Part shown: piece by piece, positions 3,219-63,184 of the stretch
Position numbering within the stretch: the stretch's first letter is position 1
How the letters are laid out: each line of letters starts with the position of its first letter
Origin: Candidatus Bathyarchaeia archaeon
GTDB taxonomy: Archaea; Thermoproteota; Bathyarchaeia; Bathyarchaeales; Bathycorpusculaceae
Assembly (NCBI GenBank): GCA_050012755.1
Contig: JBEKGO010000003.1
Location: 29,168-93,167 of the forward strand
DNA length: 64,000 nt
Reading direction: 5' to 3'
The notes under the pieces: generated by a model
What the model was told of the DNA's origin: nothing
The model's input: the letters and a program-made list of their open reading frames with translations, nothing else
Databases searched by the model: none
Program-made: the position numbers and the translations under genes

Positions 3219-4262
3219 TTGTCTATAAATGAGAATTTAGCTAAACTCTCAAACGCCTGCGGAGTAACAGGCAGAGAAAATGAAGTTAGAGAATTAATGA
3301 TTCGACTTATGACGCCCTACGCGGACGAAATAGTTGTCGATAGACTTGAAAACGTCATAGCAATAAAAAAAGGAAAAGAAAAATCACCCAAAATCATGCT
3401 AGCTGCCCACATGGACGAAGTCGGCTTGATGGTGAAAACTATTACTAAAGAAGGGTTTCTGCAATTCGCTAAAATGGGCGGAATAGACGACCGCATATTA
3501 CCTGCTCAAAAAGTTACAGTTTTCTCAAGAAAAGGTACGTTTCCTGGCATAATCGGGTCTAAACCGCCGCACATTCAAAAAGAAGAAGAGAGAAAAAAAA
3601 TTATAACATCCGATGAGCTCTTCATTGACGTGGGAGCAGAGAGCAAAGACGACGCATTAGCAATGGGCGTCTCAGTCGGCGACCCAATAAGTTTTGACAT
3701 TCAATACGTTCATTTAGGCAAAGACGTCGTTATGGGCAAAGCTTTTGATAATCGAGCAGGCTGCGTTACCATGATTGAAGCCCTTAAACTAATGGAAAAA
3801 ACTGACTTCACAATCTATGCTGTCGGCACTATTCAGGAAGAGGTAGGATTGCGTGGAGCAGGCCCAGCAGCCTTCAGCATCGACCCTGACGTGGCAATAG
3901 CCCTTGACGTAACCATTGCAGGTGACACCCCGGGGGTAAAAGAGTTTGATACCACAGTAAAGATGGGGAAAGGACCAGCGCTGACAATCACAGATTCAGG
4001 ACTAATCACTTCAGGAAAGATTTTGCGATGGCTTTTGGACTCGGCTGAAGAGGAAAAAATACCCTTCCAGATTGAAACGGGCTTAATGGGCTCAACTGAC
4101 GCAGCAAGAATTTCTCTTACACGACAAGGCATTCCATGCGGCAACATATCGATGCCCGTACGTTACATTCACAGTCCAGTAGGCATGCTTTCCCTCAAAG
4201 ACATAGAAAACTCAGCTAAACTAACAGTTGCAGCGATACAAAGAACTAAAAAATATTTCTAA
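3219..4262 (+). CDS. M42 family (TET) aminopeptidase
   Basis: AAHMDEVG, KAFDNRAG, QEEVGLRGA, STDA, RYIHSP motifs. Confidence 0.93.
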   Translation: MSINENLAKLSNACGVTGRENEVRELMIRLMTPYADEIVVDRLENVIAIKKGKEKSPKIMLAAHMDEVGLMVKTITKEGFLQFAKMGGIDDRILPAQKVTVFSRKGTFPGIIGSKPPHIQKEEERKKIITSDELFIDVGAESKDDALAMGVSVGDPISFDIQYVHLGKDVVMGKAFDNRAGCVTMIEALKLMEKTDFTIYAVGTIQEEVGLRGAGPAAFSIDPDVAIALDVTIAGDTPGVKEFDTTVKMGKGPALTITDSGLITSGKILRWLLDSAEEEKIPFQIETGLMGSTDAARISLTRQGIPCGNISMPVRYIHSPVGMLSLKDIENSAKLTVAAIQRTKKYF

Positions 4263-4324
4263 GCAGGCGAAGTACAATGACGCGTGACCAAATTCTGTTT
4301 GTGTAGGCTGTTGAAATTGTGCAA

Positions 4325-4470
4325 GTTTTGGCGCAAAATTTTTTCTTTGTGTTCCAGTTTGCTTCTTTGGTTCAGGGTCTGCCTCATTTGCAGGTTGCGT
4401 CTAGATTCGTCCCAATTCGTCTTGATTCGTCCCAAAACGTCCCGATTCGTCCCAAAAAGTCCTGAAAAGT
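4325..4470 (-). repeat. Dispersed element copy A: conserved 76-bp block (4325-4400) plus eight 10-bp phased units
   Basis: CGT/AGT ends at 4400, 4410 ... 4470; the 76-bp block matches the reverse complement of 62976-63051 without gaps (13 mismatches by manual alignment). Confidence 0.85.
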
Positions 4471-4579
4471 CTTGGATAAAACCTGTGCCAAACTAATCAA
4501 AGCTGCAATTAAAAATTTTCTAGAACTAGAACGGCAATGACAAATCAGCAAAAGCATTTTAGACAATGGCACTCAATAC

Positions 4580-5050
4580 TTGTTGTGGCTTAAAATGGAC
4601 AAGAACACAGCAGAGAAATTTTCTGGAAAATTTGAGTTTCTAGAACATACTGCAGATGTTTTCATTCGAGCTCATGGTAATACAATGGAAGAAGCCTACG
4701 AAAACGCTGCGCTTGCAATGTTCGAGACTATGACTGATTCCGAGAAAATCGCTCAAACACAAGAACAAACCTTAGAGGTTGAAGCCGAAGACCAATATGC
4801 GTTGCTTTATAATTGGCTTGAAGCTTTGCTTGTAAAGTTTGAAACAGAAAATATGTTGTATTCCAAATTTCAAATCACAAATTGGCAAGAAACACCTGAA
4901 ATCTTCAAATTTAAAGCAAAAATCTGGGGCGAAAAATTTGATTCCCAAAAGCATCCGCAAAAAGTCGCTGTTAAGGCAGTGACCTATCATAGAATGGTTA
5001 TAATAAGGGAAAAAGACCGAGTGGTCTTAGAGTTTATTTTAGATATCTAA
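4580..5050 (+). CDS. Archease
   Basis: FEFLEHTAD and VKAVTYH ... FILDI motifs. Confidence 0.95.
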   Translation: MLWLKMDKNTAEKFSGKFEFLEHTADVFIRAHGNTMEEAYENAALAMFETMTDSEKIAQTQEQTLEVEAEDQYALLYNWLEALLVKFETENMLYSKFQITNWQETPEIFKFKAKIWGEKFDSQKHPQKVAVKAVTYHRMVIIREKDRVVLEFILDI

Positions 5051-5712
5051 GCAAGCTTGAGTTTCTTTAAGTCAGTTATTATCTGCTCTACGATTGGTTC
5101 TGGCGGTTGATCAAGGTTTTTGGTGCCCGAGATTACGAAGGGAATCTTTTTCTGTTTGAAGAATTCTATCAGCGGCTTCGTTTGTTCTTTGTATACTTGG
5201 AGTCTTTTCTTTATAACTTCAGGGTTATCATCCGATCGCTGATAAAGTGGTCCCCCGCATTTGTCGCAAACGTCTTCTATTTTTGGCTTTAAGAATCGTA
5301 CATTATAGACGGTTCCGCAGTTGCGGCATATTCTGCGAGTTGATAAGCGCTCAATAATTATGGAATCTGACACATCGAGCATGAGAATAACATCAATTTT
5401 TGTGAAAGTATCTAGCATTTTTGCTTGTTCCGTTGTACGGGGGAACCCATCCAAGATGAAGCCTTTGCCTTTGGGAATTTTGCTTATACGCTGCTTTAAA
5501 ACCTCAATGACAACTTCATCTGGAACAAGCAGCCCCTTCTCCACATAACCCTTAACTTTCTTGCCAAGTTCAGAATTCTCTTTGATTAATTCGCGGAAAA
5601 TATCGCCTGTGGCGATGACTTCCACACCAAGTTTTGCTTGAAGCCTCGAAGCATAGGTTCCTTTTCCAGCGCCTGGCGCTCCCAACATTATTGCTTTCAA
5701 TTCAGTTGCCAA
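5047..5712 (-). CDS. adk: Adenylate kinase (long, Zn-lid type)
   Basis: GAPGAGKGT, LDGFPRT, CxxC...CxxC lid, RSDDN. Confidence 0.95.
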   Translation of the reverse strand: MATELKAIMLGAPGAGKGTYASRLQAKLGVEVIATGDIFRELIKENSELGKKVKGYVEKGLLVPDEVVIEVLKQRISKIPKGKGFILDGFPRTTEQAKMLDTFTKIDVILMLDVSDSIIIERLSTRRICRNCGTVYNVRFLKPKIEDVCDKCGGPLYQRSDDNPEVIKKRLQVYKEQTKPLIEFFKQKKIPFVISGTKNLDQPPEPIVEQIITDLKKLKLA

Positions 5713-8510: not shown

Positions 8511-10037
8511 TTGAACAAAAATCGCATAAGAGTTCAGTACAGTGGATTTATTGTTTTTTCGTCTCAGCTACTGAGTGTAGTTACTGGACTCATCTTTACG
8601 CTTTTGCTTACCAGAACTATGTCCACAGAACAGTTTGGCATCTGGACAAACATGTTTGATTATCCTGTATACTTTTTGATTTTCAGTGGAATTCTACCTT
8701 TTTGGGCAACAAGATTTGTCGCAAGGGGCAAAGAGGGAACCGTTAAAACTGGCACTTCAGTGCAATTATTGATAGCTCTTGTTTCAACTCTGGTTTATCT
8801 GCCCGTTATAGTTTTAATTTCAAAAGGAATCGGCACCCAAGCTTACTTACTAATTTACTTGATATCAGCACTTTACATTTTCAATACTTACATGATTACG
8901 GTTTTTGAAAGCATGTTACGTTCCATAAGGCCTCAAGTAATTGGATACGGCTTATTGATTGAAGAGACAGTGAAAGTCGCAGTTGCCTTAGTTGTGATAG
9001 TTGATTTAAAGCAGGTGTTTCTTGGTGCAATTTTAGCTCTTGTTATTTCTGCTTTCGTTCAAATATTATACTACACACGACTTGTGGCCAGTGAACTTAA
9101 GAAAAAAGTAAACTGGAGCTACATTAAAGAATGGCTCAAGGGCTCACCAGCAATTGTTTTTAACGCATTCGGCGGAGTATTGCTTTCGTTTGTCTTTATC
9201 TTGCTTTTCATCTATGGTGGGTCGGAAGCCCGAGCTTATTACCAGGCGGCTTTTACCTTTACGAGCGTAATTTCTTATTCTTCTTCCTTGGCATTCGCAT
9301 TATATCCTGTATTGTTAGCAAAGACTTGCCCAGAAGAACAAGTTGGAGAATCATTTAAGACGGTGTTGATGTTGGCGATTCCATTAGCTACATTAACCAT
9401 GGTTATGTCCACTTCATTCTTGACTATCCTAAAGTCTTCTTTCAATGTTGCTTGGCCAGTCCTTATCGCATTAACGATTGATACGTTGGTAGTTTTGATC
9501 TTCAACTTCTATACTTCTTGTCTAATGGGAGCAGAAGCTTTTGATGAGGAAGGAAGAATTTCGTTACGTAAACTTGTTAAAAGCAAAATCTTTCTTGTTT
9601 TTGGCGTTACATACATTCAAGGCGCAATTGCCTTGCCCTTGATTTACTACATTCTGACACATACAGCGGTAGCTGGACCAGTACTAGCAACAGTGTACAC
9701 AATATCTGTACTCATTGGCGTTCACATTTCATCATTTATTGGACTATACTCGTTTAGACGTGGCTCATTTAGGATACCTGTTGCTTGGAAAAGCATAGGT
9801 AAGTACATAGCTGCTTCACTCTTAATGGGAACTGTGCTTTTCCTGTTACCAAATACGACAACCTTAACTTACACATTAGGAAAAGCCATAGCTGGCTTTC
9901 TACTTTACGTGGGTTTGTTAGTTGCCATTGATGTGAAAGCGCGCCAACTAATCAAGTTAATTTTTGCAGAAATAAAAGGGTCCTGGCAGCAGCTCACAGC
10001 GAAAAACGGAAGTATTGAGCCTGAAAACGTTTCTTAG
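8511..10037 (+). CDS. Polysaccharide flippase / MOP-superfamily membrane protein
   Basis: About 14 hydrophobic segments in 508 aa, Wzx-like N-terminus. Confidence 0.65.
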   Translation: MNKNRIRVQYSGFIVFSSQLLSVVTGLIFTLLLTRTMSTEQFGIWTNMFDYPVYFLIFSGILPFWATRFVARGKEGTVKTGTSVQLLIALVSTLVYLPVIVLISKGIGTQAYLLIYLISALYIFNTYMITVFESMLRSIRPQVIGYGLLIEETVKVAVALVVIVDLKQVFLGAILALVISAFVQILYYTRLVASELKKKVNWSYIKEWLKGSPAIVFNAFGGVLLSFVFILLFIYGGSEARAYYQAAFTFTSVISYSSSLAFALYPVLLAKTCPEEQVGESFKTVLMLAIPLATLTMVMSTSFLTILKSSFNVAWPVLIALTIDTLVVLIFNFYTSCLMGAEAFDEEGRISLRKLVKSKIFLVFGVTYIQGAIALPLIYYILTHTAVAGPVLATVYTISVLIGVHISSFIGLYSFRRGSFRIPVAWKSIGKYIAASLLMGTVLFLLPNTTTLTYTLGKAIAGFLLYVGLLVAIDVKARQLIKLIFAEIKGSWQQLTAKNGSIEPENVS

Positions 10038-12970: not shown

Positions 12971-13290
12971 CTTCTGACACTTACTTTAAATCTTAATTCG
13001 ATGCTTCCCTCAAGATATACCATTCCATTATTGACGATTAATTTTCACATGAGAAATTCGAATTTGTCTTGAAATTATGGCTCGGAAACAGTTTCAGGTA
13101 TTTTGAACTTTAATAGCTTAGAACTTGGTAGTAATCCTGTTTATGCAGCACCTTTCCGCAAACTAAAATTTTGAATTTGAAGCTTTTTCTTCAATTTTGT
13201 GCTTTTTCGTTTTGGGAGAGGCTTGGAATAGGCTTAGATTAGCGAAAGCTTGGAGAAGGCGGCGTTTTGTTTTTGAAGTTGTGAAGAAAT

Positions 13291-13360
13291 CTGACGTGTT
13301 TCTGCGCTGTTTTGACGTGATCTTGCGCATATTTGACGTGTATTTGCGTATTTTGAACGT
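13291..13360 (+). repeat. CG-phased array with 10/11-bp alternating period (21-bp dimer)
   Basis: CG at 13295, 13305, 13316, 13326, 13337, 13347, 13358; units alternate TGACGTG / TGCG. Confidence 0.75.
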
Positions 13361-13640: not shown

Positions 13641-13881
13641 CCTCTTCCCCAAAAGCAACTTGATTTAAGTCCTGTTGATTTTGCTGACCGTTACAGAATT
13701 CCGTAACGCCGTTACATTTTTCCGTAACGCCGAAGCAGCATTTTTGGAGAAGCGCCATTTCTTCTCGAAGTCCTTGAACTTTCAAGTTTACACGATGACG
13801 AAGAACACGTCGGTAATCTACATCAAAGTTTTCGGGCGATTTTAGGAATTCAAGCTCAATCTTGCTTAGCAAGTTTTTCAC
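13591..13881 (-). mobile_element. ORF reading antisense into the tRNA-Gly 3' half; candidate N-terminal fragment of a split (SSV-type) integrase
   Basis: ORF ends ...VVRSPGFEPGIISLEG across the tRNA T-arm; accessory genes follow; no catalytic integrase half seen. Confidence 0.5.
13688..13729. repeat. Two tandem 21-bp units, each a CGTTAC-N8-GTAACG palindrome
   Basis: CCGTTACAGAATTCCGTAACG / CCGTTACATTTTTCCGTAACG. Confidence 0.8.
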
Positions 13882-14120: not shown

Positions 14121-14234
14121 CATTTGGGTAATTGGTTGAAGAGGATAAAATTAACATGATAACGATTGAAGAACGGTTTAGTTGTATTTTCCATTCTTTT
14201 CTCCTTTAGTCAGTTCCATTGCCTCAGCAAACCC
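14121..14234 (-). repeat. CCTCAGCAAACCC-ended dispersed repeat, copy 1
   Basis: CATTCTTTTCTCCTTTAGTCAGTTCCATTGCCTCAGCAAACCC, aligns with copies ending at 18855, 19539, 19647. Confidence 0.8.
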
Positions 14235-14250
14235 ATCTTGTTACTCAAAA

Positions 14251-15929: not shown

Positions 15930-18683
15930 TTGGTAGTCGAACTGACTTACAGCGATGTTTTAAAAACAATTTTCGTTGATGTTGAGGGCACAGAAAAAAT
16001 GGAGAAAAAATACGTGAAAATAATAAAAAATAAAATAATAACTATTGCGATTGCTATTTTCTTGATGCTTTCGATGTCAGCTTCAATGATGCTAGTACCA
16101 ACTGCTACTGCGCATACACCAGCTTGGCAAATCCCCACATATGCCTACATTAATGTTGCACCTAACCCAATTGGTGTCGGTCAGCCAGCTTCCGTGTATC
16201 TGTTTCTTACAAACTATTACTACGGTGCACAATATGGAAACGACCTCAAATTCCACAACTACAAGCTTACCATTACAGCGCCTAATGGAGCGGTAACAAC
16301 GCAGAATTTTGCTACAGTCGTAGACTCAACATCAGATCAACATACTTCATTTATTCCTGATCAAGTCGGCACGTACAATTTGACCTTCACTTATCCAGGA
16401 GAAACCTACACATCAACCGAGCTAATATCAGGAAGTGTATTTGTTCCTCCAGGACCTAACGATTACACAAACGATACTTTTCTACCCAGCAGTGCATCAA
16501 CAACTCTTACAGTTCAGCAAACAGCAATACCTGCGGCCATAGCCAGCTACCCGCTTCCAACCGCTTACTGGACACGACCAATCTACGGTGAAAACTCCTA
16601 CTGGTACACGATTACATCAAACTGGCTAGGTACGGGCGCACCAGGCTACGGTGGCTGGTCCAATTTGGGCTACGATGCCATGGGATTCGGAGGCGGTCAG
16701 GCGATGTTTCCAGGAGACGCCGTAGGATCTCAAACTAGCCATGTGATGTGGACTAAGTCGCTGCAATCCGGTGGAGTTGTAGGAGGAAACGATGTTGGTA
16801 CTGCACAGACTTACTTCGACGGATCTGCATACCTGATTAGATTCGACAATCCGATAATACTTGCTGGAATGCTCTACTACACAGAACCATTAAGCTTCTC
16901 GGGAAGTGATTCTGGACCTACTGACTGCGTTAACCTACAAACAGGACAACTTATTTGGTCTCGCACTGATGTACCAACGCTAACAATGGGACTTGTCTTT
17001 GACGTCCAAACCCAAAACGAGCACGGAGTTACTCCACCAATCTTAGTAGCAGCTAGCGGTTCGACTTGGATGGGCTATGATGGAGACACAGGAAACTGGC
17101 TGTTCAACATGACTAACGTTCCTGCTTTAGGTGCTGGAAAGGTAATGGGGCCAAGCGGTGAATACTTAAACTATGTCATGGCAAACGCGGGCACTGACTC
17201 GAAGCCAGATTGGCGTTTAGGTGAGTGGAACTCTACTAAAGTGTTTATGCCAGACGGTTCAGCTGCACCAACACTGACTGGTACATTGGATGGAAGCGTT
17301 TCGACTGGGTCGAACACCTGTTATGACTGGAACGTTTCGATACCATGGTTAAACACTATGACGTCGACACCTACTGTTGTGAGCGCTAACTATAATGATG
17401 GGATACTTTGCTACAATGGTACTCTGCCTTCAAACGGTGAAAACATGCTTTTCTCTGCAGTAAGCACAACTCCCTACACTTACTTCTTTGTCAACCTCAA
17501 TGCTTCTCGTGGTGCAATCGGTTCGGTATCGTGGTGGAATACACTTCAGCCGCCAGCAAACAACTACACTGTCGTTCAAGCCGGAGTTGATTGGAACACT
17601 CGCATCTTCCTTCAATCATATAAGGAAGCTACACAATGGGTCGGATTCAGCCTAGATTCAGGTAAGCAAATATGGATAGCCCAACCGCAAACGGCTTTTG
17701 ATTACTATGGCAGTCCAAGCGCAGGCATTTTATCCGGTCAGATTGCTTATGGTAGGCTTTACAGTTGTGCAATGGGAGGAATACTCTACTGTTATGACGA
17801 TACTACTGGAAAGCTATTGTGGACTTATGGTAATGGCGGTGAAGGCAACAGCACTAACTCTGGCTTTAACTGGCCTTACGGCAATATCCCAACGTTTGTG
17901 AATGCTATTGGCAACGGAATAGTATACTTGATTACCAGTGAGCATACTTGGGTGTCGCCACTTTACAAAGGCGGATTGGCGCGTGCTGTTAACGCAACTG
18001 ACGGAACAGAAATCTGGACTATTTCATCGGCTACTATTGAGTTCGGTTCGACAAGCTATGCTATGGCTGATGGCTATAATACATGGTTTAATAGTTATTC
18101 CAACCAAATTTACACTGTAGGCAGAGGACCTAGCGCTACTACCGTTTCAGCACCAAACACCGCTGTAGAATCTGGATCGCCAGTAGTGATACGAGGTACA
18201 GTCACCGACATTTCTGCTGGCACAAAGCAAGACCAGCAAGCAGCTGATTTTCCGAATGGTGTTCCAGTTGCATCTGATGCTAGCATGAGTTCTTGGATGG
18301 GCTATGTTTATCAACAGAAACCGCTTCCAACCAACTTTACTGGTGTTCCTGTAACGATAAGCGTCGTTGACTCTAACAACAATTTCAGAACCATTGGCAC
18401 TGCAACAACTGACGCAACCGGCATGTATACCTTAACATGGACTCCGGACATATCTGGCAACTTCACTGTTTACGCTAACTTCGCTGGCACTAACGGTTAC
18501 TGGCCATCATATGCAGAAACCTCTTTTGTCGCAAATTCAGCACATGCAACAACTGCTCCAACTGCAACTGCTGCTGCATCTGTCGCTGATACATACTTTG
18601 TTCCCGCAATCGCCGGACTATTTGTTCTAATCATTATAGTCCTCGCTCTAGTAGCTCTGCAAATGTTTAGGAAGCGACCGTAA
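15930..18683 (+). CDS. Large PQQ-like beta-propeller cell-surface protein (true start probably ~16000-16014)
   Basis: Signal peptide, repeated 'xxTGxxxW' propeller motifs, Ig-like C-terminal domain, TM anchor plus RKRP tail. Confidence 0.9.
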   Translation: MVVELTYSDVLKTIFVDVEGTEKMEKKYVKIIKNKIITIAIAIFLMLSMSASMMLVPTATAHTPAWQIPTYAYINVAPNPIGVGQPASVYLFLTNYYYGAQYGNDLKFHNYKLTITAPNGAVTTQNFATVVDSTSDQHTSFIPDQVGTYNLTFTYPGETYTSTELISGSVFVPPGPNDYTNDTFLPSSASTTLTVQQTAIPAAIASYPLPTAYWTRPIYGENSYWYTITSNWLGTGAPGYGGWSNLGYDAMGFGGGQAMFPGDAVGSQTSHVMWTKSLQSGGVVGGNDVGTAQTYFDGSAYLIRFDNPIILAGMLYYTEPLSFSGSDSGPTDCVNLQTGQLIWSRTDVPTLTMGLVFDVQTQNEHGVTPPILVAASGSTWMGYDGDTGNWLFNMTNVPALGAGKVMGPSGEYLNYVMANAGTDSKPDWRLGEWNSTKVFMPDGSAAPTLTGTLDGSVSTGSNTCYDWNVSIPWLNTMTSTPTVVSANYNDGILCYNGTLPSNGENMLFSAVSTTPYTYFFVNLNASRGAIGSVSWWNTLQPPANNYTVVQAGVDWNTRIFLQSYKEATQWVGFSLDSGKQIWIAQPQTAFDYYGSPSAGILSGQIAYGRLYSCAMGGILYCYDDTTGKLLWTYGNGGEGNSTNSGFNWPYGNIPTFVNAIGNGIVYLITSEHTWVSPLYKGGLARAVNATDGTEIWTISSATIEFGSTSYAMADGYNTWFNSYSNQIYTVGRGPSATTVSAPNTAVESGSPVVIRGTVTDISAGTKQDQQAADFPNGVPVASDASMSSWMGYVYQQKPLPTNFTGVPVTISVVDSNNNFRTIGTATTDATGMYTLTWTPDISGNFTVYANFAGTNGYWPSYAETSFVANSAHATTAPTATAAASVADTYFVPAIAGLFVLIIIVLALVALQMFRKRP
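15933..15966 (+). promoter_or_regulatory. Imperfect palindrome (candidate TrmB operator) just upstream of a TATA-like box for the propeller gene
   Basis: GTAGTC-GAACT-GACTTAC followed by TTTTAAAAAC. Confidence 0.45.
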
Positions 18684-18699
18684 AAATGCGAAACAAAAA

Positions 18700-18720
18700 A
18701 TTCCTTTTCCCTTTTTTTTA
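18700..18720 (+). terminator. Pyrimidine/oligo-T terminator-like tract after the propeller gene
   Basis: TTCCTTTTCCCTTTTTTTT. Confidence 0.5.
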
Positions 18721-18721
18721 G

Positions 18722-18855
18722 TTTAAAAATTATTTGTGAATGATATGGGGCTGAGTGGGCTCTGGTTGAATCTTGATTTCCTTAGGTTTGTTGTGATAAC
18801 GCATTTTCATTTGCGTTTTTCTTCCTTTGTTCTGTTCCAGAACCTCAGCAAACCC
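18722..18855 (-). repeat. CCTCAGCAAACCC-ended dispersed repeat, copy 2
   Basis: TTTAAAAATTAT..GATATGGGGCTGAG...CCTCAGCAAACCC. Confidence 0.85.
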
Positions 18856-18899
18856 ATTCCAAAGGAATAGAAAAAAGTGTTGCGGGATGATAAGAAACG

Positions 18900-19301
18900 A
18901 TGCTGATTGAGAACGAAAAAAAGGAATATGTTAAACAAGCCAACAATCGCGGGCGAACTAGACAATCAGAGGTCATTACGAAAACAATAGATAACTCGAA
19001 TGAGAAACACCGAAACTGTCAACGTGAATGGATTAGAAAGCATCCAGATTACATGAAAGAATGGAAGAGTAGGAATAAGGAGAAACAGAGGCATTATAGG
19101 GAAACTTGGAATAAGAAGCACCCGAACTACTACCGTGAATGGATTAAGAAGCACCCAAATTACATGAGAGATTGCTTGAAAGAACGGAAGGGTAATGCGA
19201 AGGGGTTAAACGCTGGAGTCACTCTAAAAACTGAAGTTGTCGATTTGACTGCGATTTCTGAGTCAGACAAAAGTATTGCGGCGAAAATATTGAAACAATG
19301 A
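18900..19301 (+). CDS. Basic protein with (Y)xxEWxxKHPxY repeats
   Basis: REWIRKHPDY, ETWNKKHPNY, EWIKKHPNY; style seen in mobile-element accessory proteins. Confidence 0.55.
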   Translation: MLIENEKKEYVKQANNRGRTRQSEVITKTIDNSNEKHRNCQREWIRKHPDYMKEWKSRNKEKQRHYRETWNKKHPNYYREWIKKHPNYMRDCLKERKGNAKGLNAGVTLKTEVVDLTAISESDKSIAAKILKQ

Positions 19302-19355
19302 GAAGGAAATTTGTCGGCAAACAAATTGGATTGTAGAACAGTCTAACTGGTGCAA

Positions 19356-19540
19356 AGGAAGCGACCGTAAAAATGCCAAAACAAATTTTCATTTCCCTTC
19401 TTTTGGATACTGAAAGAATGTGTGAAAAAGAATGGGGATTGAGTAGGCTTTGGATAATATTCACATAGTTGCAGTTGAGAATGGTTTAATCATTTCTCAT
19501 TCTTTTCTCCTTAGTCTGTTCCAGAGCTCCAGCAAACCCC
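19356..19540 (+). repeat. Duplicate of the propeller-gene 3' end, terminator and repeat copy 3
   Basis: AGGAAGCGACCGTAAAAATGC identical at 18669-18689 and 19356-19376; similarity continues to CTCCAGCAAACCC. Confidence 0.85.
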
Positions 19541-19647
19541 TTTAAAAATTATTGCTGGATGATATGGGGCTGAATAGGCTCTAGTTTGAATCTCTCTTAT
19601 CCTTAATTTTTTTTCTTCCTTAGTTTGTCCAGAGCCTCAGCAAACCC
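19541..19647 (-). repeat. CCTCAGCAAACCC-ended dispersed repeat, copy 4 (tandem to copy 3)
   Basis: TTTAAAAATTATTGCTGGATGATATGGGGCTGAATAGG...CCTCAGCAAACCC, closest to copy 2. Confidence 0.85.
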
Positions 19648-19868
19648 TTCGCAATAAATAGAAAAAAATGTAATAGTTAGGAAGAAAGATGCTGACTGAG
19701 ATAGAGTTATCTTCTAAGAGAGGCAACCAAGTGGATATATGACGCAAGAAGCGCAGTGCGATTGCTAGGCAACATAAAAATGGTTCTTCCGGTTTGTCTG
19801 CATTAATTGGAAGCGAAAAGGTGAAAAGCCACCGCGTATAATAATCCAAAACGACGAGGACTCTGACA

Positions 19869-20098: not shown

Positions 20099-20581
20099 TT
20101 AAGGCACAATTGATACACTAATTATTGTAACATTTCTAAGCGGTTTGTCTTTTGAGTTCGTCCTTACTTTAGCGATTGCATCGACCACTTCCATTCCAGA
20201 GATGACTTTGCCGAAAGCTGGGTGTTTGCTGTCTAAGAAATTATTGTCTGCTTGATTGATGAAAAATTGGCTGCTTCCGGTGTTTGGACCTGCGTTTGCC
20301 ATTGATATTGTGCCTCTGTCGTTGCGATTGGTTCTAGTAAATTCGTTTTTAATGTCGGGTATTGATGGGTCACCATACCCGGTACCTGTGGGGTCGCCAC
20401 CTTGAATCATAAAGCCAGATATTACCCTGTGGAAGATTGTGCCGTTAAAGGTTCCCTTCTGGACTAAATTCTTAAAGTTGCCTGTGGTTATTGGCATGTC
20501 GTTACGTAGTTGGATAGTTATGTCACCCATGTTGGTTTGGAGCAAAATTTTTACTCCGTTGGTATATTCGTTTGAAGCCAT
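20099..20581 (-). CDS. Cyclophilin-type peptidyl-prolyl isomerase (cytoplasmic)
   Basis: FHRVISGFMIQGGD, SMANAGPNTGSSQFFIN, HPAFGKV. Confidence 0.95.
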   Translation of the reverse strand: MASNEYTNGVKILLQTNMGDITIQLRNDMPITTGNFKNLVQKGTFNGTIFHRVISGFMIQGGDPTGTGYGDPSIPDIKNEFTRTNRNDRGTISMANAGPNTGSSQFFINQADNNFLDSKHPAFGKVISGMEVVDAIAKVRTNSKDKPLRNVTIISVSIVP

Positions 20582-30753: not shown

Positions 30754-31500
30754 ATGGCTGATCCGCGAACAAGCATAATTAACGAGCGTTTGGCGCGGAT
30801 AGGCAGAATTATTGCCGTTTCAAGTGGAAAAGGCGGCGTCGGCAAAAGCATGGTTGCAACCACGCTCGCGTTAACCTTGGGACAGAACGGCTGCAAAGTA
30901 GGCTTGTTTGACCTAGACTTCACCAGCCCATCAACACACTTAATTCTTGGCGCCCATAAGATGCATCCGCAAGAAGAAAAAGGCTTAGTTCCGCCAAAAG
31001 TTCATGGCTTAGAATATATGTCCCTTGTCTACTTCGTCGGCGAAAAACCGGCACCCTTGCGTGGGGCGGATGTTTCAAACGCACTTATCGAACTCTTGGC
31101 AGTTACACAGTGGGGTACGCTTGATTTCCTGATCATTGATATGCCTCCAGGAATCGGTGATGCAATTCTCGATTTGGTACGCCTGGTTAAGCATATAGAA
31201 TTTTTAATAGTAACAACGCCTTCGCTTTTGGCTTTTGAAACAGTCAAAAAACAAGTAGCGTTGCTGTGCGAGTTGAAAATGCCAATTATCGGCGTCGTTG
31301 AAAATATGAAAATGGATGTGTCTGAAGGTGTAGGAGTGGAAACGGGAAAGCTGGGGCTAAAATATCTCGGCGAAATCCCATATGACCCACAGGTGGAAGG
31401 CGCCATTGGCAACGAAAAAGAATTGCTCAACACGGCCATTGCCAAAAAACTAAGAAAAGTAGCCAAAAGCATAATGCTGATGGAAAAGAGAGAACCCTGA
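30754..31500 (+). CDS. Mrp/NBP35 family ATPase
   Basis: SGKGGVGKS, DMPPG, VENM. Confidence 0.92.
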   Translation: MADPRTSIINERLARIGRIIAVSSGKGGVGKSMVATTLALTLGQNGCKVGLFDLDFTSPSTHLILGAHKMHPQEEKGLVPPKVHGLEYMSLVYFVGEKPAPLRGADVSNALIELLAVTQWGTLDFLIIDMPPGIGDAILDLVRLVKHIEFLIVTTPSLLAFETVKKQVALLCELKMPIIGVVENMKMDVSEGVGVETGKLGLKYLGEIPYDPQVEGAIGNEKELLNTAIAKKLRKVAKSIMLMEKREP

Positions 31501-54284: not shown

Positions 54285-54392
54285 TTAAGCTACAGGAATG
54301 GTTCAGGATGGAATCATTTTACGAAGCAGCAACTAGTTGATTTGTTCTCTAAATACTTTGAAATAGAGGAAATTAGACATTGCCCGTCGTTC
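54285..54392 (+). pseudogene. Fragment resembling the C-terminus of a class I SAM methyltransferase
   Basis: SYRNG.GWNHFTKQQLVDLFSKYFEI; no N-terminal part. Confidence 0.35.
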
Positions 54393-54513
54393 GAACAAAA
54401 AATGCTAAAACGATTTTTTTTCCTAAGAACTCGTTTAGACTTCTGGGGTTCTTGTCGGTGTCTGGTAGAGTGAAATCGGGTGCTTTTTCTCCGACTTTGA
54501 TTTTGCTGGACAT
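54373..54513 (-). pseudogene. Truncated peroxiredoxin (Bcp/AhpE-like), N-terminal 46 aa
   Basis: GTGAGG RBS; MSSKIKVGEKAPDFTLPDTDKNPRSLNEFLGKKIVLAFF then breaks before the catalytic PxxxTxxC. Confidence 0.8.
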
Positions 54514-56237: not shown

Positions 56238-56798
56238 TTAACCGTTAAATTCAATACTGCTTTCAATTTCAGCAAACATTTCTCTTTTAGCCTTGCATAT
56301 TGGGCAAATGTAAGGTGGATCTTCACGGAATACCACGTAACCGCATTGTTTGCAGTACCAAAGCTTCTTTTTGACAGTTGGTTGAGGCTTTGGGGCTTGA
56401 GCTGCAGCTGGTTTTTCTTGTGCGCTTTGAGAGGATGTTTGTTTAGTAGCTACTGGGGTTTCGTACGCTCTTTGTTGTTTTTCTATTGGTCTTCGTTCTG
56501 GAACTTCAGGTAGGTTTTTGCTTTCGTAAACTTGCTTGTTCACATAGAGTCTACAGTAGCATGAGCCGTATTGGGCAACGTCTGGGTCCCGATAATCGCA
56601 GGGGCAAATTATGTCTCGGTCATATTCAAAATTGCCTGAAGTTAACCTGCATGGGCACAATGGGTAGCCGTAGCGGTCTTCGTTTGTTTTTAACCCTTCG
56701 AGGAAGCCCTGCAGAAGTTCGGGTTGAGGTGTTAGGAAATATCCGTAGGTTTTAGCATCAGCTTCGGCTCTTCTGCGAGTTTCCTCTAACGTTGTCAA
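56238..56798 (-). CDS. Ferredoxin:thioredoxin reductase catalytic domain fused to rubredoxin (FDR-like)
   Basis: CPC, CPC, CYC motifs; C-terminal CKQC..CPIC. Confidence 0.92.
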   Translation of the reverse strand: MTTLEETRRRAEADAKTYGYFLTPQPELLQGFLEGLKTNEDRYGYPLCPCRLTSGNFEYDRDIICPCDYRDPDVAQYGSCYCRLYVNKQVYESKNLPEVPERRPIEKQQRAYETPVATKQTSSQSAQEKPAAAQAPKPQPTVKKKLWYCKQCGYVVFREDPPYICPICKAKREMFAEIESSIEFNG

Positions 56799-57079
56799 AT
56801 TTCAAGGGCCTCTTTGAGCCTATCTTTGCGGAATCCAGTGATTACAGTTTTGTCATCAACAATTATAGTAGGGTAACTTAGCATTCCGCCTTTGCTGGCA
56901 ATTGTCTCATGAACCTTCGATTTGTCGTCTTCATCAAGCAAATCCACATCCACAAACTCATATTCAACTTCGTTTTCTTTGAGAAATTCTTTTGTAAGTT
57001 TACACCAAACGCAAGTGCTTAAAGCGTACAGAGTAACCTTGTGGTTGTTTTTTTTACCAGAAACTTTTGAGAATTGCAT
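56795..57079 (-). CDS. Glutaredoxin/NrdH-like protein
   Basis: YALSTCVWC, SYPT, TGF; overlaps FTR start. Confidence 0.9.
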   Translation of the reverse strand: MQFSKVSGKKNNHKVTLYALSTCVWCKLTKEFLKENEVEYEFVDVDLLDEDDKSKVHETIASKGGMLSYPTIIVDDKTVITGFRKDRLKEALEI

Positions 57080-57146
57080 ATTCTCACCACTAAAATTTGG
57101 TTTAAGCCAAATATAACTGTTTAGATTACTAAAGAGAACTAATTTC

Positions 57147-58529
57147 TTAATGCTCATGCGAGTGAAGATTACCGAAAGCGTTCTGAACCACTTCCGACAA
57201 CGCAGGATGAATATGCATGCCCTGCGCAATAGGCGCAAAAGTTCCAGTTTCAGATACCATGGCATTAATGATTTCTTGAATTAAAATTGAAGCTTCAGGA
57301 CCAATTATGTGTCCCCCAAGGATTTTTCCTGTTTCTTGTTCCACAATAACTTTCACAAAGCCTTCAGGAAACCCCATTGCAGCACCCATAGCTGTATCTC
57401 TATAGAGGGCTTGTCCAACGAGGATTTTGTGATTTTGTTTAGCTTCTTGCTCTTTTAACCCTATTGAAGCAACTTGTGGATGAGTAAAAACTGCGTGAGG
57501 AGCAGTTGAAAAATCCATTTTGGCCTTGTGCTCATGAAGGGAATTATGCCATGCGACGCCCGCTTCATAATTGGCAACATGTTTAAACATTTGAATGCCG
57601 ATGGCGTCGCCGAAAGCCCAAATGTTCTTTTTGCTTGTTTCCAGATACTCGTTAACTTTTATGAAATTGTGATCGTCAAGTTTCACGCCTGTCTTTTCCG
57701 GTTTCAAAATGTCAGCGTTGGATACTCTGCCTGTAGCGATCATTACTGCTTCAGCTGAAAACTCATGTAGGCTGACGTCTTGCCGGTTTCTGGCAATCAA
57801 AGTCTTAATTTGCCCTTCTTGTTTAGCTTCAATAACCTCAAAACCTGTGTATATTTCCATTCGCTGACTCATTTCCTTCTTTAACAATTCAGAGATTTCT
57901 GTTTCCTCTTCAGGCACCACTCGATCCGGTCTTTGTAAAATAGTGGTTTTTGTGCCCATGCTCGCGAAAAAGTGGCCGTATTCCATACCAACGTAGCCTC
58001 CTCCAACAATCAATATGCTCTTGGGGGGCGTTTGGAGTTCTAAAACTGTGTCACTTGTCAAGTATTCTATTTTGTCTATTCCCTTTATTAATGGAAGCGC
58101 GGTGCGTGCGCCTGAAACAATAAAAATCTTTTCCGCCGAAATAGTATGCGCCCCAACCTTCATCGTGTAATCCGAAATAAATTCGGCTGTTTCCTTAAAC
58201 CAAGTCATTTCAGGCGTCGCTTCGACCGCCATTGCCTGATGCCCTGAATCCTCACTAACCAACTTATGCATTCTTGTCATTATATTGTTAAAATCGACCG
58301 AATTCAATGTTGCATTAACGCCAAGCTTTCCTGCCTCTTTGACAGTGGCAATTGCGTCTGCTGGGTAAATCAGCATTTTAGAAGGCACGCAACCTACGTT
58401 TGTGCATGTGCCGCCCATTTTTCCATGCTCAATCAACGCTACTCGAAATCCCTGTTCAACTGCGGCTGAAGCTACGAGCATTCCAGAGCCCGAGCCAATA
58501 ACGATGATGTCAAATCGCTCCATAGTCAA
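57147..58529 (-). CDS. Flavin disulfide oxidoreductase (dihydrolipoamide dehydrogenase / mycothione reductase-like)
   Basis: GSGSG, GGTCTNVGCVPSK, GGGYVG, HIHPALSE. Confidence 0.9.
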   Translation of the reverse strand: MTMERFDIIVIGSGSGMLVASAAVEQGFRVALIEHGKMGGTCTNVGCVPSKMLIYPADAIATVKEAGKLGVNATLNSVDFNNIMTRMHKLVSEDSGHQAMAVEATPEMTWFKETAEFISDYTMKVGAHTISAEKIFIVSGARTALPLIKGIDKIEYLTSDTVLELQTPPKSILIVGGGYVGMEYGHFFASMGTKTTILQRPDRVVPEEETEISELLKKEMSQRMEIYTGFEVIEAKQEGQIKTLIARNRQDVSLHEFSAEAVMIATGRVSNADILKPEKTGVKLDDHNFIKVNEYLETSKKNIWAFGDAIGIQMFKHVANYEAGVAWHNSLHEHKAKMDFSTAPHAVFTHPQVASIGLKEQEAKQNHKILVGQALYRDTAMGAAMGFPEGFVKVIVEQETGKILGGHIIGPEASILIQEIINAMVSETGTFAPIAQGMHIHPALSEVVQNAFGNLHSHEH

Positions 58530-58639
58530 GCCTCAATGTCAATAAAAATGAATTGTTAAAGGACAAATAAACTTTTCAACGATGTTTTGGGCTGGAAAAT
58601 TTTTTATGCAAGTTAAAGATAACATAATTGAGGATTCTA

Positions 58640-58738
58640 ATGGCAAAACCTGTAAAACCAACAAAAGCCGAAGAAGAAAAGAAAAAGAAAGCATATTATG
58701 CCAAAGCCGAGAAAAAAGCTAAAGCAGTTAAAAAGTAG
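58640..58738 (+). CDS. 32-aa Lys/Ala-rich small protein
   Basis: GAGG RBS; MAKPVKPTKAEEEKKKKAYYAKAEKKAKAVKK; TTTTTATG TATA-like upstream. Confidence 0.6.
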   Translation: MAKPVKPTKAEEEKKKKAYYAKAEKKAKAVKK

Positions 58739-59507
58739 CTTTTTGGCTCAGAAATTTTGGTAAACACCGTTCGTCATGAACGGCATCAAAGCTTTCCAGT
58801 TCTTTTTTTGTTAGCGGCAAGGCAATTCTAGATACCAAACCGTTTAAACTCCAAGGAAGCCGTATCAAACGCATTTCGCCTGAAGTTACCCATTCGTCAA
58901 TATGGAACCCGGCGCTTTTTACTTGCTGGGCAAGCTCCTCCCTCTGTTGAATGCTCTTTTTGTAGGCTTGCAGGTCTAAAACGTGTAGGTGAAAGCCTCT
59001 ACCAGAATAAACAGCCTTAACTTCGGAAAAACGATTTGTAAGAAAATCATAGAGGCCGATTGCTTCCTGCTTAACCATTTCAAGCTCTAATTCACAGAAG
59101 CTTAAGCCTTGCATGCGTTTCATTTTGTCAGCTAAGGTTCCATGTATTGGGCAGGTAATGTTTTCTGGGTCAAGGTCAAAAGCGAGTTCTTGTCCTGTCT
59201 TACGGTCACATTCATCATATACACTTCTGTCATAATACACGGCTTCAGGCAAAAAATCAAGGATTTGTTGCCTTAGGTCTTCCAAATCTTTGTATTCATC
59301 AATTATTATGGTGGTTGCAGCGTCTTCTTTGTATTTTTCAGGGAAAATTTTGGTGTGCCTGCCCATGATTATTGCAAATTTGGTTTTACCAAGACTGCCT
59401 TTGAACCATTGGGCCACCTTTTCTAAGTCAAATTCTGAAGTGTAGAATTGTTTTCTTTCCTCAAGAGTTGTGTATCGCATGCCAACAGGTAGGTAGTATT
59501 GGACCAT
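58728..59507 (-). CDS. Stand-alone archaeo-eukaryotic primase small-subunit-like protein
   Basis: ELAFDLD, YSGRGFHLHV, IDEWVT..RLIRLPWSLN. Confidence 0.85.
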   Translation of the reverse strand: MVQYYLPVGMRYTTLEERKQFYTSEFDLEKVAQWFKGSLGKTKFAIIMGRHTKIFPEKYKEDAATTIIIDEYKDLEDLRQQILDFLPEAVYYDRSVYDECDRKTGQELAFDLDPENITCPIHGTLADKMKRMQGLSFCELELEMVKQEAIGLYDFLTNRFSEVKAVYSGRGFHLHVLDLQAYKKSIQQREELAQQVKSAGFHIDEWVTSGEMRLIRLPWSLNGLVSRIALPLTKKELESFDAVHDERCLPKFLSQKATF

Positions 59508-59602
59508 TCAAACCGTTATAGAATAAGATAGTTATCCCAAAATGTCTTGCGGAAAAAAACGTAATGCAGAAACCCTAATATTTCCGATTTTGTTGATTTT
59601 TA

Positions 59603-59932
59603 GTGGTGAATTCTTTGCCAATTGACCCTGATTTTCAAACCAAACGCCAAGTTGTTGGCGAACATAACGGACACAAAGTTTGGGGACCAGTTGAAGCCCC
59701 ACAAAAACTCGGAATTCATGGAACATCCAGTGCTGTTGACTGGGATTCGTGTGTTGGAGACGGAGTGTGCATAGATGTTTGCCCCGTTTCATTATACGAT
59801 TGGGCTGACTCGCCGGGGCACCCACTCTCAGAACGCAAATCTGACCCTGCCCGCGAAAAAGACTGCATACAATGCCTAGCATGCGAAATGCAGTGTCCAG
59901 CTGCAGCCATAAAAATAACTCCAGCACCTTAA
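59603..59932 (+). CDS. Dicluster ferredoxin (7Fe/8Fe type) with N-terminal extension
   Basis: CVGDGVCIDVCP and CIQCLACEMQCP. Confidence 0.92.
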   Translation: MVNSLPIDPDFQTKRQVVGEHNGHKVWGPVEAPQKLGIHGTSSAVDWDSCVGDGVCIDVCPVSLYDWADSPGHPLSERKSDPAREKDCIQCLACEMQCPAAAIKITPAP

Positions 59933-60262
59933 GCGGTGCACCTTTTGGTTTAAACTGGCAAGTATTATATTAGCAGACGCTCCAAATAACTGCTAAGGCA
60001 TGGTACACTTGCATTAAAATTAACCAATGGCCAGATTTCCAAAGATGCTATCGGAATAAAACTGATCCATCTTTATTCTATTTTGATGAGAAACGACCCA
60101 ACGAAAAGCATAGCTGCTTTATCGATATATCTTCAGAAAGGCATTTCGACAAGATATGTTAAAAGGCAAAGTGAATTGCTCAAAAAACTAGAGACAGGGC
60201 AGCCCTAAAAAAGAGTCGTATGCACTAAAAAACAAGGAAAAAAAGTTGAGTGGTTTTGGTGT

Positions 60263-60877
60263 TTATTTTACAAGACCGAGATTTTTGTTAACTTTCTCCC
60301 AGTTGATAACGTTCCAGAAAGCTTCAATGAACTTCGGTCGCTCATTTTTGTAGTCAAGGTAGTAGGCGTGCTCCCAAACATCCAAAACCATCAGAATATT
60401 AAATGTCGGAAAAACATTCACATTGTGCTTCTCAATCTGCATTATCAGTGGTCTTGCAATGCATGGATGAACGGCTAAAGCAGCCCAACCTGAACCTTCA
60501 ACGCTGGATGCAGCCATCGTGAATTCCTTTTTGAACCGTTCAAAGCTTCCAAAGCCCATGTTAATCATATCGGCAACAGCTCCTCCAGGTTGTCCTCCCC
60601 CGCCTTTGCCAGCAGGCGCCATGTTTTCCCAGAAAGCACTGTGCAAAATGTGTCCGCCAACATTGAAGGATAATTCTTTCAACATGGCTTTCATGTCAAC
60701 ATCGGCGTTTTCGCTCCGCGCTTTATCTATTTTTTCAAAAGCTGCATTTGCACCATTCACATAGGCTTGGTGGTGTTTGTCATGGTGGAGTTTTAGTTGT
60801 TGCTCAGAAATGTAGGGTTCCAAAGCATTATAACCGTATGGTAGTTTGGGTAGAGTAAATGATTTTACTTTTTCCAT
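60263..60877 (-). CDS. sod: Fe/Mn superoxide dismutase
   Basis: [29 protein letters not shown]. Confidence 0.96.
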
Positions 60878-60995
60878 AAAATTCACCAAAATCAAACAAA
60901 CCAAAGAGGAAGACAACTAATATACTTTGCCATAATACGAAATTCAGACAAAAACTAGTATAGCTTATTACCCGCGGTTTGTTTAGTAATTTCCA

Positions 60996-61505
60996 GTGAA
61001 TTTTATGACTAAAACTGATGACAACCTAAAAGCTGCATTCGCAGGCGAATCCCAAGCTAACAGGATGTATTTGGCTTTCGCTAAGAAGGCAGAGGAAGAA
61101 GGTTTCCCCCAAATTGCCATGCTGTTTAAAGCAGCGGCTCAAGCTGAAACCGTCCACGCCCTCAACCACCTAAGAGTCATGGGGCAGGTAAAATCAACCG
61201 TAGATAACTTGGGAACAGCCGTTTCTGGCGAAACATACGAGTTCAAAAAAATGTACCCGGAATTTATTGCGGATGCCAAAAAAGATGGAAACAGACGAGC
61301 TGAAAATAGTTTTGACTATGCAAACAAAGTAGAACAAATCCACGCAGCCCTCTACCAAAAAGCACTTGACGCCTTAAAAAGCAAAACACAACCAGCAAAA
61401 GCCGAATATTATGTGTGTCCAATTTGTGGAAACACTTTTGAAGGCTCAACACCTGACGTATGCCCAATCTGTGCAACGCCAAAGGAAAAATTCATGAAAA
61501 TATAA
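60996..61505 (+). CDS. rbr: Rubrerythrin
   Basis: AFAGESQA, ETVHA, EQIH, CPICG..CPIC. Confidence 0.95.
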   Translation: MNFMTKTDDNLKAAFAGESQANRMYLAFAKKAEEEGFPQIAMLFKAAAQAETVHALNHLRVMGQVKSTVDNLGTAVSGETYEFKKMYPEFIADAKKDGNRRAENSFDYANKVEQIHAALYQKALDALKSKTQPAKAEYYVCPICGNTFEGSTPDVCPICATPKEKFMKI

Positions 61506-61510
61506 AAAAA

Positions 61511-62722: not shown

Positions 62723-62900
62723 TTACGTTGTAAGTTGTTTTAACGCCTGCCTTCTCAAAAAGGTATTCCTACGAGGCAGGTCTCAGTCGTAAAGGTAACC
62801 TTTTTGTTAAAGGTATATAGATTCTCCAAAAATAATTGTTGCTATTTTGGCAATTCAAAGCATAATTGTCCTTGCTTTAGACACTTATACTTAAGCATTT

Positions 62901-63051
62901 AGAGAACGCAGGGGAACGGGATTAAACGCAAATAAACGGGAAAACACGCAGAAAAACGCAAATCAACGCAAAAAAACGTAACCTGCAGACGTGGCAGACC
63001 CTAATTCAAAGAAGCAAACAGAAACACAAAGAACAAAATTTACCCCAAAAC
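62901..63051 (+). repeat. Dispersed element copy B: eight 10-bp phased ACG units plus conserved 76-bp block
   Basis: ACG at positions 6-8 of each decamer from 62901 to 62980; 62976-63051 matches the reverse complement of 4325-4400. Confidence 0.85.
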
Positions 63052-63184
63052 AAACAATAATATTCGCTTACTCTCAAAACCGAAATAGAAGATTCTAGTC
63101 GAAAAATGAAAAATCAATATATGCCTGAATTATCTGTTTATTTAGTTGATTTACTAAAGTTAAAATGGCAGGGAAGCTGATTTT

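Follow-up and report, generated by a model that had tools for sequence, protein, structure and literature searches.

What is the bipartite element that stands twice, in opposite orientations, in a 64,000-nt stretch of the genome of a Candidatus Bathyarchaeia archaeon (contig JBEKGO010000003.1, positions 29,168 to 93,167; this whole stretch is referred to as the window), and what might it do for its host? Each of the two copies, here called A and B, joins a conserved block to an array of eight 10-bp units. The evidence assembled below indicates that they very probably belong to a real family of dispersed, mobile elements. The wider reading that we put forward tentatively, as one that may hold, is that A and B, and probably a third copy, C, are non-coding members of a family dispersed among Bathyarchaeia, built from a core of ~50 bp (76 bp in the A/B subfamily) and an in-phase decamer array of variable unit number, in which a mobile core is combined with a phased array that binds protein.

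Copies A and B occupy the following positions in the window, each array starting in phase with the end of its block.

4325..4400, + strand: copy A, 76-bp block; the part conserved family-wide is ~4352-4400, the family profile matches 4322-4403 (E 1.8e-12) and a core-only profile matches 4352-4400.

4398..4477, + strand: copy A, array of eight decamers, with the box CGTC in six units and AGTC in the last two.

62976..63051, - strand: copy B, 76-bp block; the family-wide core is ~62976-63025 and the family profile matches 63053-62976 (E 3.6e-11).

62899..62978, - strand: copy B, array of eight decamers, with a CGT core in T-rich units; the box is atypical, CGT being followed by T or G instead of C.

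A scripted comparison of block A with the reverse complement of block B gave an ungapped alignment of 76 nt with 13 mismatches; the repeat listing of the window contains 60 inverted pairs, and this one is the longest (83% over 76 nt). With block A as query, blastn recovered copy B at E 7e-18 and nothing else in the window below E 0.011, and a two-sequence nhmmer profile of A and B recovered A (E 1.7e-23) and B (E 6.3e-21), the next match having an E of 0.42. On the element strand, array A contains eight [C/A]GT starts at 4398, 4408 and so on to 4468, in exact 10-bp steps and with AGT in the last two, and array B contains eight CGT starts at 62978, 62968 and so on to 62908, again in exact 10-bp steps. 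Tandem Repeats Finder reported periods of 10 and 20 at both loci, and array A holds six overlapping triples of [AC]GTC at 10-bp spacing; the two arrays are identical at 31 of 80 positions only. Both copies are intergenic and each is oriented toward a same-strand downstream gene, copy A lying between the genes for an M42 peptidase and an archease and copy B between the gene for a flavodiiron protein and a divergent gene for a thioredoxin-fold disulfide oxidoreductase. These results uphold the description in the first-pass annotation, made from the sequence of the window, of a 76-bp ungapped alignment with 13 mismatches, eight units at an exact 10-bp period in either copy, an ACG core (ACT in the two distal units of A, read on the strand opposite to the element), decamers that differ between loci and an intergenic setting for both. 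Its statement that copy number is kept is correct for A and B, and does not extend to the rest of the family, in which arrays range from 3 to 10 units.

The pair is not a private duplication. As the first-pass annotation had advised, a profile of the block was searched against related Bathyarchaeia, the sample consisting of 80 archease-anchored loci with 10-kb flanks from metagenome-assembled genomes (MAGs) of Bathyarchaeia, including Ca. Bathycorpusculum (1,486,459 bases; archease 70-93% identical to that of the window; individual loci are cited by L numbers). Archease was chosen as the anchor because its 10-kb flanks also span the tRNA-Gly locus. The sample is confined to ~20 kb around this one gene, with the copy B locus outside the regions sampled in relatives; the genome of the window lies outside the 80 loci, and loci and window together make up 81 sources and 1.55 Mb. 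In 15 of the 81 sources, an iterated nhmmer family profile detected a total of 19 copies, of which 17 are clear (E 5e-16 to 2e-9) and two weak (L069, E 1.3e-3; L075, E 0.46). All 19 copies are intergenic, and none is spanned by a long open reading frame (ORF) with a protein-family match. The core is conserved family-wide over ~50 bp and ends in TGCAGGTTGCGT, and subfamilies have additional upstream sequence in common, A and B grouping with the first copy of L055 and with L060, L061 and L078.

Core and array form an obligate, phase-locked pair in which the units turn over in concert. A decamer array follows the core in all 17 clear copies, every one of which was displayed, and in both weak ones. 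Conversely, a core-blind detector of lag-10 autocorrelation, which also demanded a signal at lag 20 and excluded other lags, found ten arrays in the 1.55 Mb, all ten of them abutting a core match (both weak ones included), and none in locally shuffled DNA; the test of 10-bp periodicity and block association recommended at first pass therefore came out in favour of the coupling. Triples of [AC]GTC at exact 10-bp spacing occurred 34 times against ~1 expected and fell into 12 clusters, of which 11 lie beside a core and on the strand of that core. Pooling of 109 units from 18 arrays (L031 was omitted for its truncated core and uncertain phase, while L069 and L075 were kept despite imprecise phase) gave a unit of the form C-N3-AAA-[A/C]-G-T, with C at position 1 in 65 of 109 units, A at positions 5-7 in 62-64, A or C at position 8 in 88, G at position 9 in 85 and T at position 10 in 61. 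Mean agreement among units was higher within arrays than between them (identity 0.60 vs 0.37), and what is retained is the phase, the short core of the unit and the position beside the block, as the first-pass annotation had proposed in stating that phase rather than decamer sequence is kept. L055 and L061, with flanks 93% identical, have orthologous arrays of five and six units, in most of which the sequence is TAGACA and TTGACA respectively, a case of concerted evolution. L060 combines the core type of the first L055 copy with the array type of the second, and on its sequence looks like a recombinant of two tandem copies.

A third array in the window extends the family, with less certainty, to the tRNA-Gly locus.

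13291..13360, + strand: candidate copy C, a degenerate array of alternating TGACGTG and TGCGC at ~10.5-bp spacing, upstream of tRNA-Gly; a putative member of the family.

Tandem Repeats Finder assigned this array a period of 21, corresponding to a 21-bp superperiod. The family core profile gave no match at copy C, and weak, short core-like remnants are present upstream, at ~13190-13260. The segment is kept at the same place in L001, L015, L080 and L011 at 77-83% identity, and its CG-containing cores are retained in all five species, counting that of the window. Judged by this sequence conservation, copy C is a probable old family member. As a separate feature of this locus, two 21-bp direct repeats, each carrying the palindrome CGTTAC...GTAACG, were reported by Tandem Repeats Finder just downstream of the tRNA-Gly gene, at 13688-13732.

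Homogeneous units within arrays and divergent ones between them, a unit number that varies between orthologues (five in L055, six in L061) and the recombinant-like L060 would also be expected of a neutral by-product, a slippage-prone minisatellite seeded once beside a core that would itself be the only functional part, if any part is. This explanation appears very improbable, as it does not account for the retention of a same-phase array in all 19 copies across species whose archease is only 70-93% identical to that of the window, for the persistence of G at position 9 in 85 of 109 units while other positions turned over, or for the conserved CG cores of copy C.

A second alternative places the function in the shape of the DNA. 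Alternation of A/T and G/C at 10-bp intervals favours histone wrapping, and phased A/T tracts with G/C cores could produce curved DNA or an archaeal histone wrapping site that positions chromatin upstream of promoters. In a Fourier scan with 80-bp windows, period-10 power for AA/TT/AT/TA ranked array A first, array C second and array B fifth in the window, and period-10 power for CG ranked B first, C third and A eighth. The period of exactly 10 bp, the A-rich positions 5-7 and the G/C at positions 8-10 agree with such a structural role, as does the preservation of phase while sequence varies; however, arrays of 3-10 units fit no fixed histone footprint, and neither the strand-specific [AC]GTC box in 11 clusters nor the obligate conserved core is explained. 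A purely structural function is accordingly judged quite unlikely, and we think it rather probable that the array serves as a platform for protein binding.

Comparison of close relatives demonstrated that the elements are gained and lost. For copy A, the flanks delimit the insertion and show what lies downstream of it.

4278..4527, + strand: copy A, whole inserted segment, defined against the empty site in the closest relative, L001 (blastn of flanks).

4551..4564, + strand: native archease promoter-like box (AAAGC followed by a T/A-rich stretch), given as context and outside the element; it occupies the same place in the element-free L001, L003, L005, L007 and L013.

Window positions 3563-4277 align by blastn to L001 9220-9931 and positions 4528-5263 to L001 9933-10669, such that 250 bp at copy A (4278-4527) correspond to 1 bp in L001. 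The box at 4551-4564, which we take to be a promoter by the archaeal consensus for the transcription factor B recognition element (BRE) and TATA box, is intact downstream of the insertion. Cleaner cases were found in L009. Three relatives with flanks 88-96% identical (L014, L005 and L006) lack its segment 8143-8470 (328 bp), which has GTTTC at either border and ends in inverted termini of 14-16 nt. L005 also lacks its segment 18912-19300 (389 bp), which stands between copies of AGAT (CTTAGAT) and whose termini are similar to those of the first. The two L009 copies have their arms in common with each other and with no other locus. Further filled and empty pairs, less clean, are L029/L050, L033/L037 and L075/L080. 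Given that both L009 copies have target-site duplications and related termini, the best-resolved members can be described as similar to miniature inverted-repeat transposable elements (MITEs). The proposal of a dispersed, non-autonomous mobile family made at first pass thus gains support from empty sites and, in two cases, target-site duplications, at least to the extent that the elements are sometimes mobile; precise empty sites were established for A and the two L009 copies, and duplications for the L009 copies and not for A, B or the others.

The ends of the elements are less uniform than their interior. Copy A has no clean target-site duplication or terminal inverted repeat, and the L009 terminus motif, searched among the 19 copies, occurs only at the two L009 copies. 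A de novo search for terminal inverted repeats in 16 of the 19 copies (the flanks of three being too short) yielded scores that reached or only just exceeded the 95th percentile obtained by shuffling each copy, from A/T-rich or short-repeat alignments, none of them significant for A, B or the others. What the family conserves is therefore an internal module and not its termini.

An IS110-family recombinase pseudogene (DEDD_Tnp_IS110) lies 247 bp from the core at L019 6417-7198 (-) and L012 6634-7194 (-), pointing away from the array. It is found only at these two orthologous loci, where similarity of the core to other copies begins at the point at which the pseudogene segment stops; no transposase was found beside the other 17 of the 19 copies. 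A link between IS110 and the family was rejected, given that the pseudogene is confined to L019 and L012 and that the 247 bp upstream of it match no other copy. IS110-type elements target repeated sequences, and the core may have been the target of the IS110 element at these two loci. In the same M42-archease spacer as copy A, L031 carries a truncated-core member at 9768-9822 (+), with an array reaching ~9880, and closer relatives are empty there; the spacer could be either an insertion hot spot or a site of old presence with repeated loss.

These data must also be weighed in terms of a purely selfish MITE, in which core and boxes would be cis-sites for a transposase or recombinase and would have no role in the host, as in the subterminal repeat clusters of Ac/Ds and the multiple end-binding sites of Tn7 and Mu. 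Presence and absence between close relatives, the duplications and related termini in L009, the transposon-like extra flanking sequence common to subfamilies, the lack of arrays without a core and the IS110-type pseudogene 247 bp from two cores are all in line with it. We nevertheless regard it as unlikely, since the conserved module is internal and one-sided while termini are not conserved family-wide, the other 17 copies have no transposase beside them, boxes differ even among the copies of one genome, and the preservation of copy C at one site in five species (77-83% identity) looks like host constraint.

If the array binds protein, which protein might it be? A 99-aa gene stands behind the array at the tRNA-Gly locus in L055, L007, L060 (partial, at the contig end) and L061 (a remnant). 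In L007 its ATG, at 20351, lies 18 nt past the fifth and last box, and this gap, which contains GGAG, is too short for a further promoter; the gene can therefore be transcribed only from the core. In L055 it starts 160 nt past the core. The cores at this locus differ from the others in that the otherwise variable middle reads AAAGC-TTAAATC, like the local promoter boxes of tRNA-Gly and archease. Archaeal TATA boxes centre ~26 bp upstream of the transcription start, and transcription at this locus is predicted to start in the first box.

The 99-aa protein forms a family of 26 clusters, restricted to Bathyarchaeia, and gave no sequence match in Pfam or the PDB. Its AlphaFold2 model (predicted local distance difference test score, pLDDT, 90) contains two beta-beta-alpha-beta halves. 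Foldseek placed PhS018 of Pyrococcus first (2glw; template modelling (TM) scores 0.69/0.73), followed by four MraZ entries with probabilities of 0.98-0.99 and query-normalised TM-scores of 0.46-0.49, and the nearest named Atlas clusters are archaeal AbrB-family regulators (score 0.84, taken as a lead only). PhS018 is grouped with DNA binders of the AbrB/MazE type (PMC4333400). The model is consistent with a single-chain tandem-AbrB protein of MraZ/PhS018-like fold. Membership of the MraZ family proper (UPF0040) was rejected, there being no Pfam or PDB sequence match and the fold being nearest to PhS018, with MraZ second; by analogy, the array may work like an MraZ operator even though the protein stands outside that family. 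That the tandem-AbrB protein is the binder of the array is possible, and we advance it as a candidate. The first-pass suggestion of a protein that binds cooperatively to one face of the helix is plausible, and this protein would give it a concrete form. A distinct 78-aa gene of the MazE/AbrB type (PF04014) was also observed near the tRNA-Gly locus, at L060 11000-11233 (-) and L005 19349-19579 (-).

We infer protein binding, promoter activity and an effect on neighbouring genes from these observations, and the mechanism that would connect them can be outlined as follows. The array would be a helically phased platform on which a small DNA-binding protein places one subunit per box, in the major groove and with all subunits on one face of the helix. 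In most arrays the box read would be [A/C]GTC, in the manner of MraZ on GTG(G/T) boxes with 6-nt spacers. The archetype would be the promoter-operator of the tandem-AbrB gene, in which the core carries a BRE/TATA-like box and is followed by boxes one helical turn apart. This module would have been copied around the genome on MITE-like vehicles, ~330-390 bp long in the best-resolved cases, while its boxes evolve in concert by slippage, constrained in phase and in a 3-4-bp core. Most dispersed copies, including A before archease and B before the flavodiiron gene, would have lost the TATA-like box and would now be decaying relics or else serve as landing strips for protein, ~80 bp upstream of host promoters. 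The fullest version, a transposable promoter-operator cassette whose core nucleates the tandem-AbrB protein and whose boxes polymerise it on one face, so that transposition spreads control or chromatin-like landmarks before archease, M42 peptidase, flavodiiron protein and tRNA-Gly and box turnover lets cassette and binder co-evolve, is doubtful.

Several results weigh against this account. The box is [AC]GTC in only ~10-11 of 18 arrays, others having AGG, AGC, GACA or, in B, CGT followed by T or G, and one protein of single specificity would therefore not read all of them. No [AC]GTC array occurs away from a core, although such arrays would be predicted if the protein controlled a regulon independently of the element. 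An intact TATA-like box is present in ~4 copies only (L007, the second copy of L055, the first of L009 and L031); in the others, among them A and B, no part of the core is less conserved. The tandem-AbrB gene adjoins the array at one orthologous locus and not at the other 15 copies, A and B among them; its presence behind 4 of 19 arrays is effectively one evolutionary event, because all four lie at the tRNA-Gly locus with an unusual core variant. In the 64-kb window, tblastn found no tandem-AbrB homologue, and Pfam found no AbrB/MazE domain in 44 ORFs (41 small intergenic ones and three larger unassigned ones). The 99-aa protein is without the oligomerisation helices of MraZ, and its query-normalised TM-scores to MraZ are just 0.46-0.49. 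Finally, target-site duplications and inverted termini are clear only in L009 and were not found for A, B or the remaining copies.

The direction of the putative promoter was weighed as well. The reverse complement of the core resembles the TATA box of the local tRNA-Gly gene, which raised the possibility of a reverse-strand promoter; this was set aside because distances to divergent genes range from 64 to 461 bp and because the two archetype copies are without that box but have a good box on the forward strand.

Transcription from the core, as deduced for L007, would place the array in the 5' leader of the gene, and with the strand asymmetry of the arrays this is compatible with a function in RNA: the core would be a promoter, and its transcript, a leader or small RNA containing the array, would use the repeated motif to bind or titrate an RNA-binding factor. 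Such a role is highly unlikely in our estimation. RNAalifold, run on 16 of the 17 clear cores (L031 was left out for its truncated core), returned seven weak pairs, all on the same strand and none with a compensatory change, which led us to reject a structured non-coding RNA; across the window, two tRNAs were the only Rfam matches at the gathering threshold, and a search of three element loci that admitted E values up to 10 yielded noise only, with nothing above threshold. Moreover, the TATA-like box is lost in most copies and several copies face convergent genes. The non-coding RNA family suggested by the first-pass annotation is consequently not supported, with no compensatory pair on either strand and no Rfam match.

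Other identities were rejected. A coding origin is contradicted by the mismatches in the block, which fall 5/5/3 over the codon phases and therefore give no coding signature; the 70-aa ORF across copy A has no Pfam match, and copy B has stops in two of the three element-strand frames. One element, searched by blastn in distant mode against phage and plasmid collections, gave no match. On these grounds neither a protein-coding fragment nor the end of an insertion sequence, both raised at first pass as possible sources of the block, was recognised in it. Arrays of clustered regularly interspaced short palindromic repeats (CRISPR) consist of 24-48-bp repeats with unique spacers of similar size, and the present unit is 10 bp long with no spacers. 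A partition centromere was discarded, as no gene for a partition ATPase or a centromere-binding protein flanks any of the 19 copies, and no replication-initiator gene was found beside the copies examined; the centromere, partition or origin function entertained at first pass is thus without evidence from neighbouring genes.

Additional features were recorded around the copies and in the sample. Copy B lies in an oxidative-stress cluster (window 56238-63829) that encodes ferredoxin-thioredoxin-reductase-like and glutaredoxin-like proteins, a pyridine-nucleotide disulfide oxidoreductase, an Fe/Mn superoxide dismutase, rubrerythrin, the flavodiiron protein and the thioredoxin-fold disulfide oxidoreductase. 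Between array B and the start of the flavodiiron gene, a perfect 7-bp inverted repeat, CCTGCCT ... AGGCAGG, with a 21-nt loop (62746-62780, -) could be a leader hairpin or the site of a regulator. A 46-aa ORF at 54376-54513 (-) matches only the first 35-40 positions of the AhpC/TSA and Redoxin profiles and is probably a gene remnant. Elsewhere in the window, a segment of ~690 bp is duplicated at 18669-19671 and also at 14195-14242 (repeat families D1, D2 and D6, spacings 684-688), and 111-bp internal repeats occur inside the ORF 18900-19301, which has no Pfam match. Among the relatives, L033 has at 16844 (+) a tRNA with anticodon CTA, called 'tRNA-Pyl' by ARAGORN, where its sister L037 has tRNA-Gly(TCC), the upstream regions being nearly identical; it may be a mutated or suppressor-like copy of tRNA-Gly, or a miscall. 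L016, L039 and L070, contigs whose archease is 74-82% identical to that of the window, are filed under Acidoferrum, Planctomycetia and Methanocella MAGs, probably through binning contamination by Bathyarchaeia contigs.

How the family relates to described systems depends on which of its parts is compared. The closest parallel to the array is the MraZ operator. In Mycoplasma genitalium, MraZ binds direct boxes at 10-bp spacing, GTG(G/T) with six-nt spacers, with one subunit per box and the transcription start inside box 1 (PMC12957436); in Mollicutes, MraZ sites are direct repeats of AAAGTG[T/G] (PMC8475190). The Bathyarchaeia arrays likewise have direct boxes of 4-5 bp (at least three on one strand) at a 10-bp period and, at the tRNA-Gly locus, directly upstream of the gene for a single-chain protein with two AbrB halves; the transcription start at the first box, shown in M. 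genitalium (PMC12957436), is predicted for the Bathyarchaeia archetype, and the Mollicutes repeat (PMC8475190) resembles the pooled unit AAA[A/C]GT. In contrast, MraZ sites have 3-4 boxes, where the Bathyarchaeia arrays have 3-10, and are single-copy and immobile, whereas the Bathyarchaeia elements are dispersed and carry a conserved core. The Bathyarchaeia protein, moreover, is archaeal, 99 aa long, nearer to PhS018 and devoid of oligomerisation helices, and its binding is a prediction.

The dispersed, modular organisation has other counterparts. The pneumococcal BOX elements and mycobacterial interspersed repetitive units (MIRU) are intergenic modular repeats with units of ~45-100 bp, thought to act partly as RNA. 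Like the present family they are intergenic, non-coding and dispersed, with conserved end modules and a tandem middle module of variable number, but the Bathyarchaeia unit is exactly one helical turn, has a copy-specific sequence and is always in phase with the core. With archaeal and bacterial MITEs the family has in common a length of a few hundred bp, the absence of an ORF, insertion polymorphism and, for both copies in L009, inverted termini and a duplicated target site; unlike them, it conserves an internal core and not its termini, and the only transposase near a copy is the IS110-type pseudogene of L019 and L012. The parC site bound by ParR in R1 and pSK41 and the omega heptads of pSM19035 are centromere-like iteron arrays bound by small dimeric proteins. 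They too are contiguous short direct repeats, with a 10-11-bp unit or a 20-bp superperiod, whose iterons assemble a cooperative filament on one DNA face; yet no ParA/ParM-type partner lies beside any Bathyarchaeia copy, the only ParA-family match in the window (30754-31500) being of the NUBPL/Mrp type and far from the copies, and there are many copies per chromosome region as opposed to one site per replicon. A survey of the literature on Bathyarchaeia MITEs, on archaeal MITEs that contain tandem repeats and on AbrB in connection with dispersed 10-bp repeats found no such element described. Within that literature, the first-pass remark that no known element has this layout holds, with analogues for its parts in MraZ boxes and in BOX- and MITE-type repeats, and no description of an MraZ-like binding mode in archaea was found.

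Bathyarchaeia are an abundant, uncultured group in which non-coding DNA, mobile elements and gene control are almost unstudied. The family provides an easily recognised cis-element that stands before conserved genes and varies among close relatives, and hence a marker of recent genome change and a handle on regulation. Should it prove to be only a selfish repeat, it would still be a new repeat family of archaea, unusual for its phase-locked minisatellite. If the tandem-AbrB protein does bind the array, MraZ-style DNA recognition would extend to archaea, the family would offer a clear example from prokaryotes of operator arrays being spread by a transposable element, and one protein with 50-100 bp of DNA would constitute a simple, culture-free test system.

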